Shown: positions 57-61,623 of the stretch, piece by piece
Position numbering within the stretch: the first letter of the stretch is position 1
How the letters are laid out: each line of letters begins with the position of its first letter
Sequence record: PP261279.1
Reading direction: 5' to 3' (one strand)
Length of the DNA stretch: 64,000 bases
Source: Escherichia phage ECP2303
Program-made: the position numbers and the translations under genes
The notes under the pieces: generated by a model
Seen by the model: the letters and a program-made list of their open reading frames with translations, nothing else
Databases searched by the model: none
What the model was told of the DNA's origin: nothing

Positions 57-2039
57 TTATTTGATGTTATTCTTTGTATCAATCAGTTCACGGTATTCAA
101 TCATAGCAGGAGTGTCCCAATATTTCAAGCCTACATGCTTCAAAAGTGGATATTTCTTTTCCAATCTTGCAATATAGGCCTTCCCGCACTTAACCCGGTT
201 GGCGATTAAGATTTTGGCACGATGATTTAGCTCACCGTACTTCCACGTGGTGCTACCTTCCCACTTGTGAAAATGTGGCCGATAACTTCCAAAATCCTGC
301 ATGGGGATAATTTTACCTAACTGTCTGTACAGGCTGTCATATGAAGTTTCATTTGCTGCGCGAGTTAGTAAGAATTTCCAAGCATCCTCTTTCAACAAAT
401 GTTCCACATTCTTCTCTGTAACATATTGGCAATCAGGATCAGTCCAAAGCAGACGAGATTCCGACACCAGGTACAGATCTTCCCCTTCAGGAATCTGGAG
501 TGCCGCACGCACACGGTCATAATCTTGCTGGTAGATGTTGCTCATCTGCCCTAGCCAACAACTTCCGCGTTGGATATCCCCCTCATACGGTATGCAGTGC
601 TTAATCTTCCTGAACTCTGCCTTAGTAATACGCTCACGCCGGAAGTAACCATCCTTCTCAAGTTTTTTAACCCAATAGCCTGGTTCGTAACGGGTTTTGG
701 TTTCACCTTTCTTCGTAGGTCGGCGTGGAAGCTCCGATAACAATTTGACCGTATCTGCAAAAAACGGATGGTGTGCCGCCTCTTTAAACTCTTTCACCAG
801 ATCCGTGTTACGGCAATAGAAAACGTTGCGTCCGGTAATCTCGCTTAAGTAGTTACACTTATTCCGGTTATATTTGCCGTCTCCGTCGTTAAATACTAAA
901 TAAACTCCCCGTAAGAATTCTACCTTTCCGTAGCAGGCGTAACCTATGCGGCCTTTATTTAAGCCGCCAGCGAAGATCTCGCAGTCCCCCAAATTTCCTA
1001 GCCCTGTTTCTTCCCAGCGGTCATACATAAAATTCTTACCGAAGATGTGCCCGAACACTCCACTGTTCTTCATCATCTCGCGTGCTTCTGAGGATGTTTT
1101 TGCTGTCTCCAGTTCTGCAACAACTTCTGCTCCACGAAGGCGAATGCCTTCTTTGACAAAAGCTTCCAAACGCTCTTGGAATCCACCATCGTCGTGACCT
1201 TCTATGGTCCATTCACGCCCTGGGTTAATATTGCAATCTCCGATAGGGATCTCTACACAAATTGCAGGATAATCTATTAGTGTCTCCAGGAACTTAGAAC
1301 GGTAAGGTTGGTGACCCATTACCACACGACTCTCGTCAGAGCTGGTATAACCCTTCAGGATGGTCATTTTCCAACCATCCTTCTCGTAGTGATACTGCGC
1401 CTCAACCTTGTCACCTTCCAGCATCTTACTGGTCATAGGGTCGGTAACGGTAAACGGAAACTTTGCATAGCGTAGGCATGACGCAATAGCAGTGCGATAT
1501 TTCAGGACATGCTCTTTCTTAACATGGAACTGAACTTTTACCCCGTTGTGCTCTTCAGTCTTCCGCTCGCGGATCTTGGTAACGTTTGGGATACCCTGAT
1601 CCAAGAACAATAGATATGTGCTTTCAACACCATTGTGCACACTGATAACATCGAAAGTGTCCACCATGCTGAACGGAGCCTTTGAACCAACACCTTTATT
1701 ACCTACCAGAGCGTTGCTGTTGCGCTTGGTTGACTCCCCGAGGTTCATGAAAGTGTTGCGGACCATCTCTTCTGACATGCCCAATCCAACGTCCTGCACA
1801 AAGAAGTATGGTTCAAGGTCTGTAGGGGAGTGAATGATGATCGGTACATCACCCCGTCCAGACTCAACATGAGAGTCCACAGCATTGAAGATTGGTTCAC
1901 GGCAGCTTGCCAGCACCTTATCTTCGTAAATCCCTTTAATGATTAGCCCAAAAGTCTCTTTGTTCAGAGAAATTGAGCCCCTGGTGACCTCCATATTTCC
2001 GGTTAGTACTGCTTTAGTTTCATTACTGTTTACAATCAT
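57..2039 (-). CDS. GHKL-type ATPase domain protein, rIIA-like
   Basis: 660-aa ORF. N-terminal Bergerat-fold motifs are visible: E-x3-N-x2-D (EPIFNAVD), DxGxG (QDVGLGMS) and a Gly-rich G2 box (GNKGVGSK). Its stop region overlaps the start of the next gene (ATGA). T4 rIIA is known to carry an N-terminal GHKL domain. Confidence 0.6.
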   Translation of the reverse strand: MIVNSNETKAVLTGNMEVTRGSISLNKETFGLIIKGIYEDKVLASCREPIFNAVDSHVESGRGDVPIIIHSPTDLEPYFFVQDVGLGMSEEMVRNTFMNLGESTKRNSNALVGNKGVGSKAPFSMVDTFDVISVHNGVESTYLLFLDQGIPNVTKIRERKTEEHNGVKVQFHVKKEHVLKYRTAIASCLRYAKFPFTVTDPMTSKMLEGDKVEAQYHYEKDGWKMTILKGYTSSDESRVVMGHQPYRSKFLETLIDYPAICVEIPIGDCNINPGREWTIEGHDDGGFQERLEAFVKEGIRLRGAEVVAELETAKTSSEAREMMKNSGVFGHIFGKNFMYDRWEETGLGNLGDCEIFAGGLNKGRIGYACYGKVEFLRGVYLVFNDGDGKYNRNKCNYLSEITGRNVFYCRNTDLVKEFKEAAHHPFFADTVKLLSELPRRPTKKGETKTRYEPGYWVKKLEKDGYFRRERITKAEFRKIKHCIPYEGDIQRGSCWLGQMSNIYQQDYDRVRAALQIPEGEDLYLVSESRLLWTDPDCQYVTEKNVEHLLKEDAWKFLLTRAANETSYDSLYRQLGKIIPMQDFGSYRPHFHKWEGSTTWKYGELNHRAKILIANRVKCGKAYIARLEKKYPLLKHVGLKYWDTPAMIEYRELIDTKNNIK

Positions 2040-7798: not shown

Positions 7799-9271
7799 TC
7801 TGGAGTTTTAATGGATAGCAGAAGTTCAGAAATCATTGCCTCACAGAAAGATGATGCCCTGAGAATGTTGCAGGCTGCACGTATGTATCTCCTTGAAAAG
7901 CTGCCGTTTTATGGCACACTGCTGTCAGGATTGCAGTTCGTAGAAAACCACACATGGTGCTCCACCATGGCAACCGACCATAAACGCATCTATTACAGCC
8001 CTGAGTTCATTATGGGATTGGCTGATGAACGCAAGGTTATTCTTAAGGCTTCTCTAACTGACGAACAGTTTGAGATGGCTGAGGTTTTCTATTCCCTCAA
8101 ATCTGTGAAAGAGGTGGCTTTTCTTCTGTCACACGAGGTGGGGCATATTATCTGTGATCACCTGGTCCGTGGTAAAAGCTTCGAGCCGGAACTGTTTAAT
8201 ATTGCTTGTGATCATGTTATCAACACAGGTCTTGTGGTTGACTTTAGCAAGCCTCCCTGTGTTTTCTTCCCGAAGGGGAAAAGCACTACGTTCGTGAAAG
8301 GTAAGCCTTTTGGTTTCTTAGCCAGCTGCTACTGCGACATGAGGTTTCATGGATGGATTGCTGAGAACGTCTATGCGGTTCTTGATAAGCAAAGAGATCA
8401 GAATAACGGTAAAAGTAAGAGCGGTAAAGGTGAGAACTCTCAAGGGGATAAGCGACAAACCGATGATCACATGAGTGGGAACGGTGGCACCAGCGATGAT
8501 CTTGGAAAGGCTATGGGGTATGATCAGCCACAACCTGTAATCAGCCAATCTGATAAAGATCAGGCCATGCAAGACTCTGGTGACATGCTGGAAGCAGCAA
8601 TGCAAGCTTCCGGAGGTCGTTGCCCCGAGGCGGTGCGTGAGTTTGTCAAGAACAGAGGTAAGCCTGTAATCAACTATATAGACATCATTAAGCAACGCAT
8701 GTTGTCTAAACGAAAGGCCGAACTGACCTACAGAAAACCTGGTCGCCGATCTGGGTCTTTGACCAGCACAATGCGAAAAGTTGGGGCTATAAACAAGAAC
8801 CAGCACGTTATTGTTCCTGGTCGTAATCCGGAAAACACCATAGATATTGTGGTAGCTTTAGACGTTTCTGGCTCGATATCTCAAAGAACTTTAAAGAAAA
8901 TGTTCAATGAAATCACCGGATTGTGCAATCTGTATAAAGAGTTTAAGGTTACAATGTTCTGTTGGTCAACTGAAGTCGGAGAGGTTAAAGTATATACTCG
9001 CGGCAACATAGACGAAATGATCAACTATGAGGTCCACTCAACATGGGGCACAACAGCTGCTTGCGTGTTCGAGTATCTGGATGCCAACATACCAAATGCA
9101 AAAGATGTCATCGTCCTGACCGACCTATACTTTGAGCATAACTTTGAACAAAAGGCTGTTGACAACAAGTGGAAAAAGTACGATACTTTATGGGTTCTCA
9201 CCGAAGGGTATAATAAAAATTATATCCCTAGCTTTGGTAAAACTGTGGAATTAATCGAGTACGCTAAGTAA
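7790..9271 (+). CDS. Metallopeptidase-motif + von Willebrand factor A domain protein (DUF2201-like architecture); probable true start at 7811
   Basis: N-terminal half contains HExxH (SHEVGHIICDH). C-terminal half contains the VWA MIDAS motif DxSxS (VALDVSGSIS). Proteins of this architecture are typically partners of MoxR ATPases. Confidence 0.8.
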   Translation: MAPSGVLMDSRSSEIIASQKDDALRMLQAARMYLLEKLPFYGTLLSGLQFVENHTWCSTMATDHKRIYYSPEFIMGLADERKVILKASLTDEQFEMAEVFYSLKSVKEVAFLLSHEVGHIICDHLVRGKSFEPELFNIACDHVINTGLVVDFSKPPCVFFPKGKSTTFVKGKPFGFLASCYCDMRFHGWIAENVYAVLDKQRDQNNGKSKSGKGENSQGDKRQTDDHMSGNGGTSDDLGKAMGYDQPQPVISQSDKDQAMQDSGDMLEAAMQASGGRCPEAVREFVKNRGKPVINYIDIIKQRMLSKRKAELTYRKPGRRSGSLTSTMRKVGAINKNQHVIVPGRNPENTIDIVVALDVSGSISQRTLKKMFNEITGLCNLYKEFKVTMFCWSTEVGEVKVYTRGNIDEMINYEVHSTWGTTAACVFEYLDANIPNAKDVIVLTDLYFEHNFEQKAVDNKWKKYDTLWVLTEGYNKNYIPSFGKTVELIEYAK

Positions 9272-44139: not shown

Positions 44140-45051
44140 TTATTTTCCGTTAACTTTGTTGTAGTTTCCCTGCTCAGATGGGACTATGGTAGAAGGTCTT
44201 CCATATTCCTGGTAATACCAATCCGCAGCAGATTGGGTAACACCGTTTTCATCTGTCCACATCATAGATTTGTATGGCTGCCACTCTTCTGCAGCATTTG
44301 TGGATGCAGTGTCTGCAAATGCCCCTGTGTCCCTCTTGTTACCTACGTTACTGCCATTCTTACAATCGTTGACAGCACCTTTTTGCTGGGTCTTGCCTAC
44401 TTTCTTAGGGTTGCTGTATACAGTTGCATTAACAACCTTGTTCAAGTAGAATGTGCGGAACTCTGTAAGTTCTACATCAAACACCATCGCAGCACCTTCA
44501 CCAACAGACTTGTTGGCAGAAAGACTGGTTATGATGTAGTTCTCAAGGAGCCTCTCCTCGGTAACCAAAGAAACCAACTGGCGCTTATTAATGATCTCAG
44601 TCAAAGCCTCCAGTGCAGCGCCTGGTCGCATAGATGCTGCAGGGTTTTTAGAGTCAGTATTCCTGTCAATGTAGTTTTGCTCATAGATTATGTGTGGTGA
44701 TGTATTTACCCTACCAGTAAAAGAAAATACACCATCTTTAATTACAGCGTGGTCTGACAGGGTAGATTTATCTTCCACCGCAAAATCAGTCTTATCAACA
44801 GAATGTTTGAAAGAGTAATTCTCAATCTGATCGAAGATGATGGCAAGATCGTTAGTAAAGTTTTTGCCCTTCATCTCCGTATTGCGACCACCATAGTTAA
44901 GACCGCTGACAAACATAGTGTACTTTACATCGCTTTCAGTTTGTTGCTCTGCCTTTTCAGCCTTTGGAGATTTAACCTCTTGAGGCTTGTACAGGTCTTT
45001 TTCATCAACTATATTGCTTGGCATAACCTCTCCAGGACACTCCGATACCAT
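44140..45051 (-). CDS. Tail protein downstream of tape measure (303 aa)
   Basis: First gene after the tape-measure terminator; function from position only. Confidence 0.5.
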   Translation of the reverse strand: MVSECPGEVMPSNIVDEKDLYKPQEVKSPKAEKAEQQTESDVKYTMFVSGLNYGGRNTEMKGKNFTNDLAIIFDQIENYSFKHSVDKTDFAVEDKSTLSDHAVIKDGVFSFTGRVNTSPHIIYEQNYIDRNTDSKNPAASMRPGAALEALTEIINKRQLVSLVTEERLLENYIITSLSANKSVGEGAAMVFDVELTEFRTFYLNKVVNATVYSNPKKVGKTQQKGAVNDCKNGSNVGNKRDTGAFADTASTNAAEEWQPYKSMMWTDENGVTQSAADWYYQEYGRPSTIVPSEQGNYNKVNGK

Positions 45052-60715: not shown

Positions 60716-60792
60716 TGGTCTCCACGGAGTGATTCGAACACTCGACCTCCTGATCCCAAATCAGGCGCTCTACCAAGCTGAGCTACGCGGAG
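60716..60792 (-). tRNA. tRNA-Pro (anticodon UGG)
   Basis: 77-nt cloverleaf folded by hand: 7-bp acceptor stem (one G-U), D-arm GCTC/GAGC, anticodon loop UUUGGGA, T-loop TTCGAAT, encoded CCA. Confidence 0.8.
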
Positions 60793-60803
60793 TATTTATT
60801 ATT

Positions 60804-60878
60804 TGGTGGCCCTGGGTGGAATTGAACCACCGTCTGGCGATTATGAGTCGCTTGCTTGAACCTTCCAGCTACAGGGCC
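60804..60878 (-). tRNA. tRNA-Met or Ile2 (anticodon CAU)
   Basis: 75 nt. Perfect acceptor stem GGCCCTG/CAGGGCC, T-arm GGTGG-TTCAATT-CCACC, anticodon loop CUCAUAA, CCA encoded. D-arm and the 27-43 pair are imperfect. Confidence 0.6.
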
Positions 60879-60879
60879 A

Positions 60880-60955
60880 TGGTGCTGATGGCAGGACTTG
60901 AACCTGCAACCTATTGATTACAAATCAATTGCACTGACAATTGTGCTACATCAGC
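60880..60955 (-). tRNA. tRNA-Thr (anticodon UGU)
   Basis: 76 nt. Acceptor GCTGATG/CATCAGC, D-arm GCAC/GTGC, anticodon loop UUUGUAA, T-arm GCAGG-TTCAAGT-CCTGC, CCA encoded. Confidence 0.8.
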
Positions 60956-60959
60956 AAAA

Positions 60960-61058
60960 GGTGCTAGGTGATGGAATCGAACCACCTATGTATTCAACGA
61001 CTACCTCGTCTATTTTCAGGATTAAAAATCCTCGCCCTTGCCAAAGGGCTTACCTAGC
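60960..61058 (-). tRNA. Atypical tRNA-like element (possible tRNA-Lys UUU with oversized variable region, or pseudo-tRNA)
   Basis: About 99 nt. Perfect 7-bp acceptor stem GCTAGGT/ACCTAGC, D-arm GCCC/GGGC and T-arm GGTGG-TTCGATT-CCATC. The central 46 nt holds a perfect hairpin AGGATT-TTT-AATCCT (readable as a loop UUUUUAA) plus a further 28 nt. Confidence 0.4.
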
Positions 61059-61156
61059 GCAATATGTTGACCATGTGGCTAGTCGGCGATGACGACTGTA
61101 ACATTTGATAATCCGGTTCTGCTTCCGGCTTTCGCTTAATTACAAGGTCAACAATG

Positions 61157-61247
61157 TGGCGGAGAGTAATGGAATCGAACCATCATCGAGTTATCCTCAA
61201 CGGGACGGTTTTCAAGACCGCTTGAGCACCATTGCTCCCTACCCTCC
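61157..61247 (-). tRNA. tRNA-Ser (anticodon UGA), class II
   Basis: About 91 nt. Acceptor GGAGGGT/ACTCTCC (one G-U), anticodon loop CUUGAAA, long variable arm, T-loop TTCGATT, CCA encoded. Confidence 0.65.
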
Positions 61248-61361
61248 TTTATAAATTACACTGATAATGACACTGATTTTCGAGCAGTTAGTGACTAGTA
61301 TAAACGACGATAAATATCAATGTCATTATCTGTATGATTTATGCATTTAAAAATATAAATT

Positions 61362-61448
61362 TGGTGGGGAGTGGTGGAGTCGAACCACCCGAGTCGCAAT
61401 GACAATAGATTTACAGTCTACACCGCTACCTCTACGGGATAACTCCCC
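61362..61448 (-). tRNA. tRNA-Tyr (anticodon GUA), class II
   Basis: About 87 nt. Acceptor GGGGAGT/ACTCCCC, anticodon loop CUGUAAA, long variable arm, T-arm GGTGG-TTCGACT-CCACC, CCA encoded. Confidence 0.65.
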
Positions 61449-61452
61449 AATT

Positions 61453-61527
61453 TGGCACCCCGTACTGGACTCGAACCAGTGTCAACGGCTTAGAAGGCCG
61501 CTGCTTTATCCACTAAGCTAACAGGGC
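61453..61527 (-). tRNA. tRNA-Arg (anticodon UCU)
   Basis: 75 nt. Acceptor GCCCTGT/ACGGGGT (two G-U), D-arm GCTT/AAGC, anticodon loop CUUCUAA, T-arm ACTGG-TTCGAGT-CCAGT, CCA encoded. Confidence 0.8.
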
Positions 61528-61623
61528 ACTGGGTGGCTTTCTTTTACACCTGAGCCGCCAGAAAAGGTGGGAGACCATGTTTATAATATTACACTGTTAG
61601 GCAAAGTTTGTCAAGAAAATATT

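Follow-up and report, generated by a model that had tools for sequence, protein, structure and literature searches.

The spacer between two tRNA genes of Escherichia phage ECP2303 is, judged by sequence comparison, a real, strongly conserved folded RNA module that is previously undescribed and widely distributed. The window, as the analyzed stretch of 64,000 nt from record PP261279.1 is called here, is that of an rV5-like (Vequintavirus) coliphage, with 97-100% identity to such phages. On balance, it appears probable that the element is a noncoding RNA module of ~85-90 nt, excised from lytic polycistronic transcripts and acting through its fold on a host factor. An earlier note, made from the window alone, had proposed a small structured RNA closed by an inverted repeat; this is supported, as the closing helix P1 covaries and one of the hairpins covaries as well. 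The element is not peculiar to this phage group, as it is also present in lambda and in P1/P7-type phages. If real, it is an unannotated structured RNA of tRNA-grade conservation in lambda, P1-family phage-plasmids, and rV5-like phages, with a function that is open to standard E. coli genetics through the lambda copy.

Position and anatomy

Seven tRNA genes (Arg, Tyr, Ser(tga), an odd 99-nt tRNA, Thr, Met, and Pro) were identified on the minus strand at 60716-61527 using ARAGORN and Rfam. A promoter-like site, TTGACA-17-TAATAT (61586-61614, minus strand), lies upstream of the cluster on the strand of the element and is a consensus match only. The segment occupies the gap between tRNA-Ser(UGA) (61157-61247, minus strand), directly upstream, and the odd tRNA with its long variable arm (60960-61058, minus strand; tRNA model score, 35.5 bits), directly downstream. 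That the element is transcribed follows from this position inside the tRNA operon. The RNA strand had earlier been written the wrong way around; the RNA is the reverse complement of that version, on the minus strand and in the sense of the tRNAs.

The inverted repeat described in the earlier note is present, with TGTTGACC (61065-61072) and GGTCAACA (61146-61153) occurring once each in this arrangement; the coordinates given there, 61064-61071 and 61147-61154, were one base too far outward. The repeat grows to 12 nt with one mismatch, 61065-61076 (TGTTGACCATGT) against 61142-61153 (ACAAGGTCAACA). Both internal hairpins were borne out, AGTCG/CGACT at 61081-61085 and 61093-61097 with the loop GCGATGA, and CCGG/CCGG at 61113-61116 and 61125-61128 with the loop TTCTGCTT.

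Read as RNA, the whole element is 89 nt (61065-61153, minus strand), with the closing stem P1 around a three-way junction. The 5' strand of P1, UGUUGACCUUGU (61142-61153), begins 3 nt past the CCA end of tRNA-Ser and is followed by the junction J1, AAUUAAGCGAAAG (61129-61141), as placed by alignment. Within J1, AAUUAAGCGA is almost invariant across copies (one AACUAAGCGA variant), and the final 3 nt are a variable spacer. The hairpin P2, CCGG-AAGCAGAA-CCGG (61113-61128), has an invariant stem. It leads into the A-rich junction J2, AUUAUCAAAUGUUAC (61098-61112), which has a 1-nt deletion relative to lambda, and then into the hairpin P3, AGUCG-UCAUCGC-CGACU (61081-61097), with a 7-nt loop that is identical in all distinct copies but two. 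The junction J3, AGCC (61077-61080; from the alignment), connects to the 3' strand of P1, ACAUGGUCAACA (61065-61076), which ends 4-6 nt before the next tRNA, depending on the acceptor-stem reading chosen. The core can thus be written as AAUUAAGCGA, 3 variable nt, CCGG-AAGCAGAA-CCGG, an A-rich junction, and G(G/U)CG-UCAUCGC-CG(C/A)C, and it is nearly constant. The covariance model R1 matches 61067-61151 at 78.6 bits (E ~5e-17), the sole copy in the window.

Chance expectation and folding

The exact arrangement of the repeat and hairpins was found in 0 of 100 shuffles. Folding of the minus strand yields the closing stem and the two hairpins with an energy z of -2.2 to -2.8, so that the single-sequence folding energy of the window segment is modestly unusual; values of z for the stability of the element fold were -2.8, -3.7, and -3.8. 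In a position-constrained shuffle test, where the closing helix must abut the core, P values were 0.012 for the window, 0.0075 for the rV5-like locus L118, 0.004 for lambda, and <5e-5 for P7. These four stems of unrelated sequence combine to ~5e-8 by Fisher's method. The element is placed beyond chance by the comparative evidence and not by the single sequence.

Distribution and genomic context

BLAST of the 98-nt spacer found it in all 113 phage records holding the cluster (95-100% identity) and in 26 further phages, where the match is 85-89% over the central ~68 nt (139 records in total). Among rV5-like phages, lambda, P7/D6, and Salmonella phage ST1UNAM, the core of ~62-67 nt that the stem encloses shows 85-98% identity. 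Model R1 found one copy per locus in each of the 58 loci scanned, and by pattern scan, at least 120 IMG/VR stretches carry the core. Among complete E. coli genomes, 426 of 5,426 carry the element, in 332 chromosomal and 121 plasmid places, and none of these 453 copies has a PGAP annotation beneath it. It is also carried by 167 PLSDB plasmids from Escherichia, Salmonella, and Shigella, almost all of them ~90-kb non-mobilizable replicons. A relaxed pattern run against 185,579 GTDB species-representative genomes returned only an A-rich chance match in a Bacteroidales MAG. The element is therefore a narrow-host accessory element of the phage pool of E. coli and close relatives.

All tRNA-containing loci have the element in the same orientation as their tRNAs. 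The block of tRNA-Ser and element is common to the window and the P7/D6-type phage-plasmids, where the copies in P7 and D6 again directly follow tRNA-Ser(UGA). The P7 copy lies inside the C1-controlled tRNA-tci-ban operon, and the P7 record carries the Op(ban) annotation. No tRNA flanks the core in lambda or ST1UNAM. The lambda copy (44866-44934, rightward strand) is unannotated and sits downstream of tR', between tR'/orf-64 and S, co-oriented with S and R, with a 250-nt leader before S. In the Salmonella siphophage ST1UNAM, the copy is placed on the opposite strand within an 820-bp gap that separates tail genes and contains a promoter-like site and a terminator-like hairpin of its own. Annotation pipelines leave the element blank or, in at least one case (record PMBT16), overlay it with hypothetical proteins.

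The copy on the Salmonella plasmid pSa1423-90k was set aside as uninformative, as both the element and tRNA-Ser are full of indels there. A lambda copy is also held by a 48.5-kb "Paenibacillus plasmid" (PLSDB NZ_CP068597.1; 48,499 bp), a record that looks like mislabelling or contamination.

Pairing, strand and constraint

The earlier note had made its proposal depend on conservation of the stems in related phages; across these, P1 pairing is kept while its sequence is replaced. In a model-guided alignment of 53 copies (29 distinct), both sides change in eight of the nine P1 pairs, with pairing kept in 96% of cells, compared with 25-50% in slid-partner controls. In a hand-checked alignment of 11 copies, six of the nine pairs change on both sides. 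More reliance can be placed on the hand-checked count and on the stems as read directly, because the model-guided alignment leans towards the structure. Read directly, P1 is UGUUGACCUUGU / ACAUGGUCAACA in the window and GAGGAUCA / UGAUCCUU in L118, in which an entirely dissimilar stem (GAGGATCA/TGATCCTT) occupies the same site between the same flanking tRNAs. The lambda helix is GUUGUGCUG / CAGCACAAC (9 bp), with lambda-type variants GUGGUG / CACCAC, GUGUGUGGUG / CACCACACAC, and GUUGUGGUG / CACCGCAAC. P7 has a helix of ~23 bp, CGCAACGUUAAGAGUAUUUGGCU / AGCCAAGUGCUCUUACCAUUGCG, and that of ST1UNAM is ~22 bp. Across 13 distinct versions of P1, the wobbles on the tRNA-sense strand are nine G.U and no A.C; the helix is therefore selected as RNA on this (minus) strand.

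P3 contains two compensatory pairs. At pair 58-70, 26 copies have GC and 2 have UA, a compensatory change with U-A in the rV5 types, and the basal pair 56-72 is AU, GC, GU, or A.C. An alternative P3 register with a 4-nt loop, given by RNAfold, was rejected, as the compensatory U-A of the window fits only the 7-nt-loop register. P2 never varies, and it and most loops are without covariation support because they are invariant. This invariance could come in part from recent horizontal transfer, the P7 and lambda cores being 98.4% identical.

A candidate 3-bp pseudoknot would pair GCA of the P2 loop (61120-61122) with UGU of J2 (61101-61103), which is UGC elsewhere. Pair 30-51 is GC in 25 sequences, GU in 3, and AU in 1, with none unpaired, and the pseudoknot fits all 32 distinct sequences seen. 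The changes are G-C to A-U in the ST1UNAM lineage and G.U in the rV5 types and L051, and the U.G variants (U30.G49) in L125-L127 are compatible. Variant scans at these positions gave few variants, all compatible and none decisive. Essentially one compensatory event, in the ST1UNAM lineage, plus wobbles gives weak support to a contact between the P2 loop and J2. A second pseudoknot, J1 GCGA with P3 loop UCGC, was rejected, being invariant and broken in variant L122, as was a J2/J3 helix folded by RNAfold in lambda, the outer pair of which is not kept in P7 and the rV5 types.

Identity between the window and L118 is 92.3% in tRNA-Ser, 96.7% in the core, and 47-55% in the stem and spacer segments. 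For P7 compared with the window, the values are 90%, 87%, and 46-56%. Stem and flank identity is put at 42-55%, roughly random. By this measure, the core, including ~50 unpaired nt, is constrained like a tRNA, and the positions beside it are randomized.

Screens against known families and coding

The earlier remark that the segment lacks a T-loop is confirmed, with no tRNA or T-loop match in it by ARAGORN or Rfam. The covariance-model scan proposed in the note found no Rfam 15 family over the element at the gathering score, in the window or in 15 related loci. With E up to 10 in the window, the sole overlap was the Tetrahymena snoRNA model TtnuCD34 (E = 8.3), a chance match, and no riboswitch or ribozyme model (hammerhead, twister, twister-sister, pistol, hatchet, and HDV-like types included) fell over the element. 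A tRNA (RF00005), a tRNA pseudogene, and a tmRNA were rejected, as ARAGORN was negative in the window and the lambda, P7, and ST1UNAM copies were tRNA-negative as well. The Rfam models for AgvB, AsxR, STnc100, and Esr41 gave no match to the element.

No Rho-independent terminator or U-tail was found at the 3' end of the element, where the sequence runs directly into the next tRNA. The hammerhead motif CUGANGA...GAAA is absent from the core. No adjacent expression platform (a terminator or an SD-sequestering helix) was seen in the window or in lambda, and a riboswitch aptamer was rejected on context, with a tRNA following the element in the window and 250 nt of leader preceding S in lambda. A conserved peptide was likewise rejected, as the 1-nt indel in J2 puts lambda and the window out of register in all frames; the ORFs that overlap the element are on the strand opposite to the tRNAs. 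Comparison with E. coli 16S, 23S, and 5S rRNAs, tmRNA, and tRNA-Glu gave no significant similarity or complementarity, and a 12-mer match to 23S includes variable spacer positions and was taken as chance.

Searches of paper texts with core sub-sequences returned no publication describing the element. No description of it was found in the literature on AgvB/AsxR, Pas sRNAs, lambda transcriptomes, and Stx-phage tRNAs, and the core strings had no match in the supplements of two prophage sRNA papers.

Proposed mode of action and alternatives

In the proposed model, P1 could have any sequence, provided that pairing holds, and would enclose the conserved core of J1, P2, the A-rich J2, P3, and probably the 3-bp pseudoknot. 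The module would be transcribed within an untranslated polycistronic RNA during lytic growth. In the window, this RNA would be that of the tRNA cluster; in P7, that of the tRNA/ban operon under C1 control; and in lambda, the late leader that depends on Q. The module might then be excised as a discrete stable RNA, ~90-95 nt in the window, with P1 protecting the ends. In the window, 3' trimming of tRNA-Ser would free one side and RNase P at the next tRNA the other, the 5' maturation of the odd tRNA by RNase P thus setting the 3' end of the element. The P7-type and ST1UNAM-type copies may instead be excised by RNase III via their 22-23 bp stem. Against the ~20 bp or more of an RNase III processing stem, helix length is ~23 bp in P7-type copies and ~22 bp in ST1UNAM, compared with 12 bp with a mismatch in the window and 9 bp in lambda. 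The RNA would act in trans via a tertiary fold recognized by an E. coli/Salmonella host factor, which may be a protein, an RNA, or a small ligand. A specific fold and not a mere spacer is most likely because the unpaired junctions and loops are conserved like a tRNA while P1 and the spacers are randomized. A host-specific partner would be consistent with the confinement of the element to phages of Escherichia, Salmonella, and Shigella. A bolder version appears improbable, namely, that the element is the founding member of a new functional RNA class, as a small self-cleaving ribozyme or as a decoy or aptamer that binds an E. coli factor with high affinity (a tRNA-processing component or a tRNA-targeting defence nuclease, for instance), carried in three unrelated coliphage lineages including lambda as one cargo of modular noncoding RNA cassettes, with the hammerhead-like core and tmRNA-like tag region described below as other cargos.

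The element could also be a passive structural spacer that insulates the neighboring tRNAs or leader segments, allowing their correct folding and processing, or protects transcript ends and has no function of its own. This is unlikely, although it begins 3 nt past a CCA end and stops 4-6 nt before the next tRNA, the neighboring Tyr-Ser gap is also filled by a stable hairpin, and the temperate-phage copies lie among other hairpin cassettes. A spacer would need pairing only, yet ~50 unpaired nt are kept in a tRNA-like manner across three unrelated phage lineages, and the core is retained in lambda and ST1UNAM, where it has no flanking tRNA. Slightly less likely is an explanation at the level of DNA, with the core as cargo moved between inverted-repeat scaffolds or as a homology patch for mosaic exchange; the proposition that goes with it, that the flanking inverted repeats reflect cassette construction and not a selected RNA helix, is held to be equally unlikely. 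Part of the stem covariation between lineages could indeed come from cassette shuffling instead of selection on the RNA, because the stems in temperate phages are part of a recurring cassette scaffold in which the cargo is exchanged. Lambdoid leaders, P7, ST1UNAM, and a Klebsiella phage share the same or a related long stem around differing cargos, the recombinants L032 and L127 (P7-type left flank and lambda-type right flank) have a broken stem, and L128 is without one cassette that is present in ST1UNAM. In the window and L118, however, the element occupies one site, flanked by the same tRNAs, and its stems pair although unrelated in sequence, with scaffold sequence absent; single compensatory changes occur within the lambda type (GCUG/CAGC to GGUG/CACC, and GUGUGUGGUG/CACCACACAC). 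The strand-specific wobbles (nine G.U to no A.C) are unexpected of a feature of duplex DNA, and no shared terminal repeats or target duplications were seen by eye. The unrelated stems of L118 and the window, the lambda-type compensatory changes, and the strand-specific wobbles together show that pairing itself is under selection.

Somewhat more doubtful again is a base-pairing sponge or small regulatory RNA, made from the tRNA or late transcript and titrating or targeting a host RNA; that it would do so via an invariant single-stranded stretch, in the manner of 3'ETS-leuZ or the anti-sRNAs AgvB and AsxR, is given the same low weight. Sponges derived from tRNA spacers are said to have been established in E. 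coli by Lalaouna et al. in 2015. sRNA genes are known to reside downstream of PR' in lambdoid prophages (PMC4104026; bioRxiv 10.64898/2026.05.13.724894), and the 3' strand of lambda-type P1 (CAGCACAAC) is C/A-rich, like the GcvB target motif CACAACA (PMC4104026), but this C/A-rich motif is missing from the rV5-type copies. An intrinsic terminator and a U-tail are both missing at the end of the element, inspection of the core by eye gave no clear Hfq motif, conservation spans the whole core and not one seed, and tests of a few host RNAs (E. coli rRNAs, tmRNA, and tRNA-Glu) gave no significant duplex. It seems quite improbable that the element is a new small self-cleaving ribozyme or ligand-binding aptamer. 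Its variable closing helix, invariant junctions, two short hairpins, and candidate pseudoknot would suit one, and one lambdoid group has a hammerhead-like core ~140 nt upstream of the element, a kind of neighborhood through which new ribozyme classes were reportedly found (Weinberg and colleagues, 2015). That neighbor is nevertheless below threshold and confined to one subgroup, the element matched no Rfam ribozyme or riboswitch with E up to 10, it has no expression platform, and nothing indicates a cleavage site. A decayed tRNA gene or a short protein-coding gene is the least credible reading and is effectively already refuted. Its location in a tRNA cluster, the hypothetical proteins of PMBT16, and the overlapping short ORFs would speak for it, but no tRNA model or ARAGORN match was obtained at permissive thresholds, there is no T-loop, and the overlapping frames run opposite to the tRNA strand and are broken by the 1-nt indel.

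Relation to known RNA systems

The closest parallels to the excised, host-directed RNA favored here are RNAC (species 1) and RNAD (species 2) of phage T4, which, like the element, are non-tRNA RNAs on the same strand as, and adjoining, phage tRNA genes. According to the T4 annotation, they are made from the same transcripts as the T4 tRNAs, and the element too lies inside a phage tRNA cluster, on the same strand, and is not a tRNA. RNAC and RNAD are not known to have a counterpart outside T4-like phages. The T4 RNAs are 119 and 139 nt, compared with 89 nt for the element, and RNAC carries a tRNA-like T-arm (GGUUCGAAUCC), whereas the element is without one. Model R1 with filters off found nothing better than E = 0.7 in the T4 cluster, and no T4-like phage was among the BLAST matches of the element. 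The roles of RNAC and RNAD have been unsolved for decades (PMC3014915; PMC9697503), and the element, if real, is a second and far more widespread case beside them.

The RNA 3'ETS-leuZ belongs to the sponges that tRNA maturation frees, as a by-product, from an external or internal transcribed spacer. It acts by linear base pairing with RyhB and RybB on Hfq, whereas in the element it is a compact, stem-closed fold that is conserved, and the host RNAs compared with it showed no target complementarity. AgvB, AsxR, PasA-D, and STnc100 come from the same neighborhood as the lambda- and P7-type copies, the prophage sRNAs lying between Q and the lysis genes (PMC4104026; bioRxiv 10.64898/2026.05.13.724894). 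Unlike the element, they are stand-alone, terminator-bearing, Hfq-binding genes, several of them convergent to late transcription; the element is probably distinct from the Pas sRNAs, judging by their descriptions and not by sequence. In the BLAST of the Pas preprint, its sRNAs were found in only 43 phage genomes, mostly of Stx phages (bioRxiv 10.64898/2026.05.13.724894), compared with 139 phage records for the element. With hammerhead and purine-type riboswitch aptamers, the element has in common a free closing helix, an invariant junction, and two short hairpins. A tertiary loop contact, as in three-way-junction ribozymes and aptamers, is only possible in the element, which has none of their defining core sequences and, unlike riboswitches, is not in a 5' UTR ahead of a regulated gene.

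Neighboring cassettes and further observations

Lambdoid leaders contain a conserved long stem, CACAACAGGUAAGAGCAUU...AGUGCUCUUUCCGUUGUG, around very different cargos. The scaffold stem can also be given as CACAACAGGTAAGAGCATT...AGTGCTCTTTCCGTTGTG (L001, which is lambda, L005-L123, L003, L128, and L130), downstream of tR' or tRNA-Ser. In P7 and ST1UNAM, the present core sits in this stem or a related one, and Klebsiella phage p4727 has another cargo in a related stem after tRNA-Ser. The 3' strand of the scaffold contains TGCTCTT(T/A), identical to the rrn/nut boxA core, followed by a GU-rich boxC-like run. In 85 loci, this boxA-like sequence is found 20 nt upstream of the core; in 23 P7-type loci, it falls within the 3' strand of the stem. 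In the recombinants L032 and L127, P7-type and lambda-type flanks are joined inside the core, the closing stem is unpaired, and P3 has a G.A mismatch. If the element is real, the leader downstream of PR' and phage tRNA operons would be sites for storing and exchanging structured RNA modules.

A type I hammerhead-like core, CUGACGAGUCC...GGACGAAACGC...GCGUC, was seen at 7921-7967 (minus strand) of L036 and also in L045, L074, L080, L087, and L098; it forms, in one lambdoid prophage group, the cargo of the cassette that immediately precedes the element. It scores 24.7 bits (E = 0.0015) with the Rfam model Hammerhead_1, for which the gathering score is 34. A tmRNA-like tag region is present at 8067-8121 (minus strand) of L036, at ~1870-1925 (minus strand) of L003, and in L128; its sequence, AUAAAU GCA AAC GAU GAU GUU GUU CUG AUG GCG GCG UAA, would encode ANDDVVLMAA*. 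Rfam tmRNA models score 26-27 bits on it, below threshold, and the region has no ARAGORN tmRNA call and no wider similarity to E. coli ssrA. In ST1UNAM, a tRNA-like piece with a D-arm and a T-arm and without an anticodon arm lies downstream. The P7 record (NC_050152; L002) has no annotation of tRNA-Ser(UGA), which ARAGORN finds just upstream of the element at 1592-1678 (minus strand) of the L002 locus. Just downstream of the element and before terB, at 1367-1482 (minus strand) of that locus, is a sub-threshold match to STnc100 (RF02076), with 43 bits against a gathering score of 47.

Within the tRNA cluster of the window, the Tyr-Ser spacer (61248-61361, minus strand) forms a long hairpin with a 15-bp perfect stem (z = -4.6) from the inverted repeat 61251-61280 / 61313-61342. 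A promoter-like ATGACA-18-TATACT lies inside this hairpin, which might represent either another structured spacer RNA of the cluster or a site of processing within it. The tRNA-cluster insertions of YP-6 and NHEP1 were considered and set aside, being located away from the element. About 18 GenBank "Campylobacter phage" records (MG0656xx) are 97-98% identical to rV5-like coliphages over the tRNA cluster and look like mislabelling or contamination. The odd tRNA (60960-61058), 99 nt long, has a normal acceptor stem, D-arm, and T-arm. Its anticodon loop is UUUUUAA (UUU, Lys-like) with the top pair mismatched, and its variable arm of ~29 nt is unusual for tRNA-Lys. ARAGORN gives it no name, and its GenBank labels vary among tRNA-Lys, tRNA-OTHER, and tRNA-TERM. 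As a speculation, it may be a variant that escapes host nucleases targeting tRNA-Lys.
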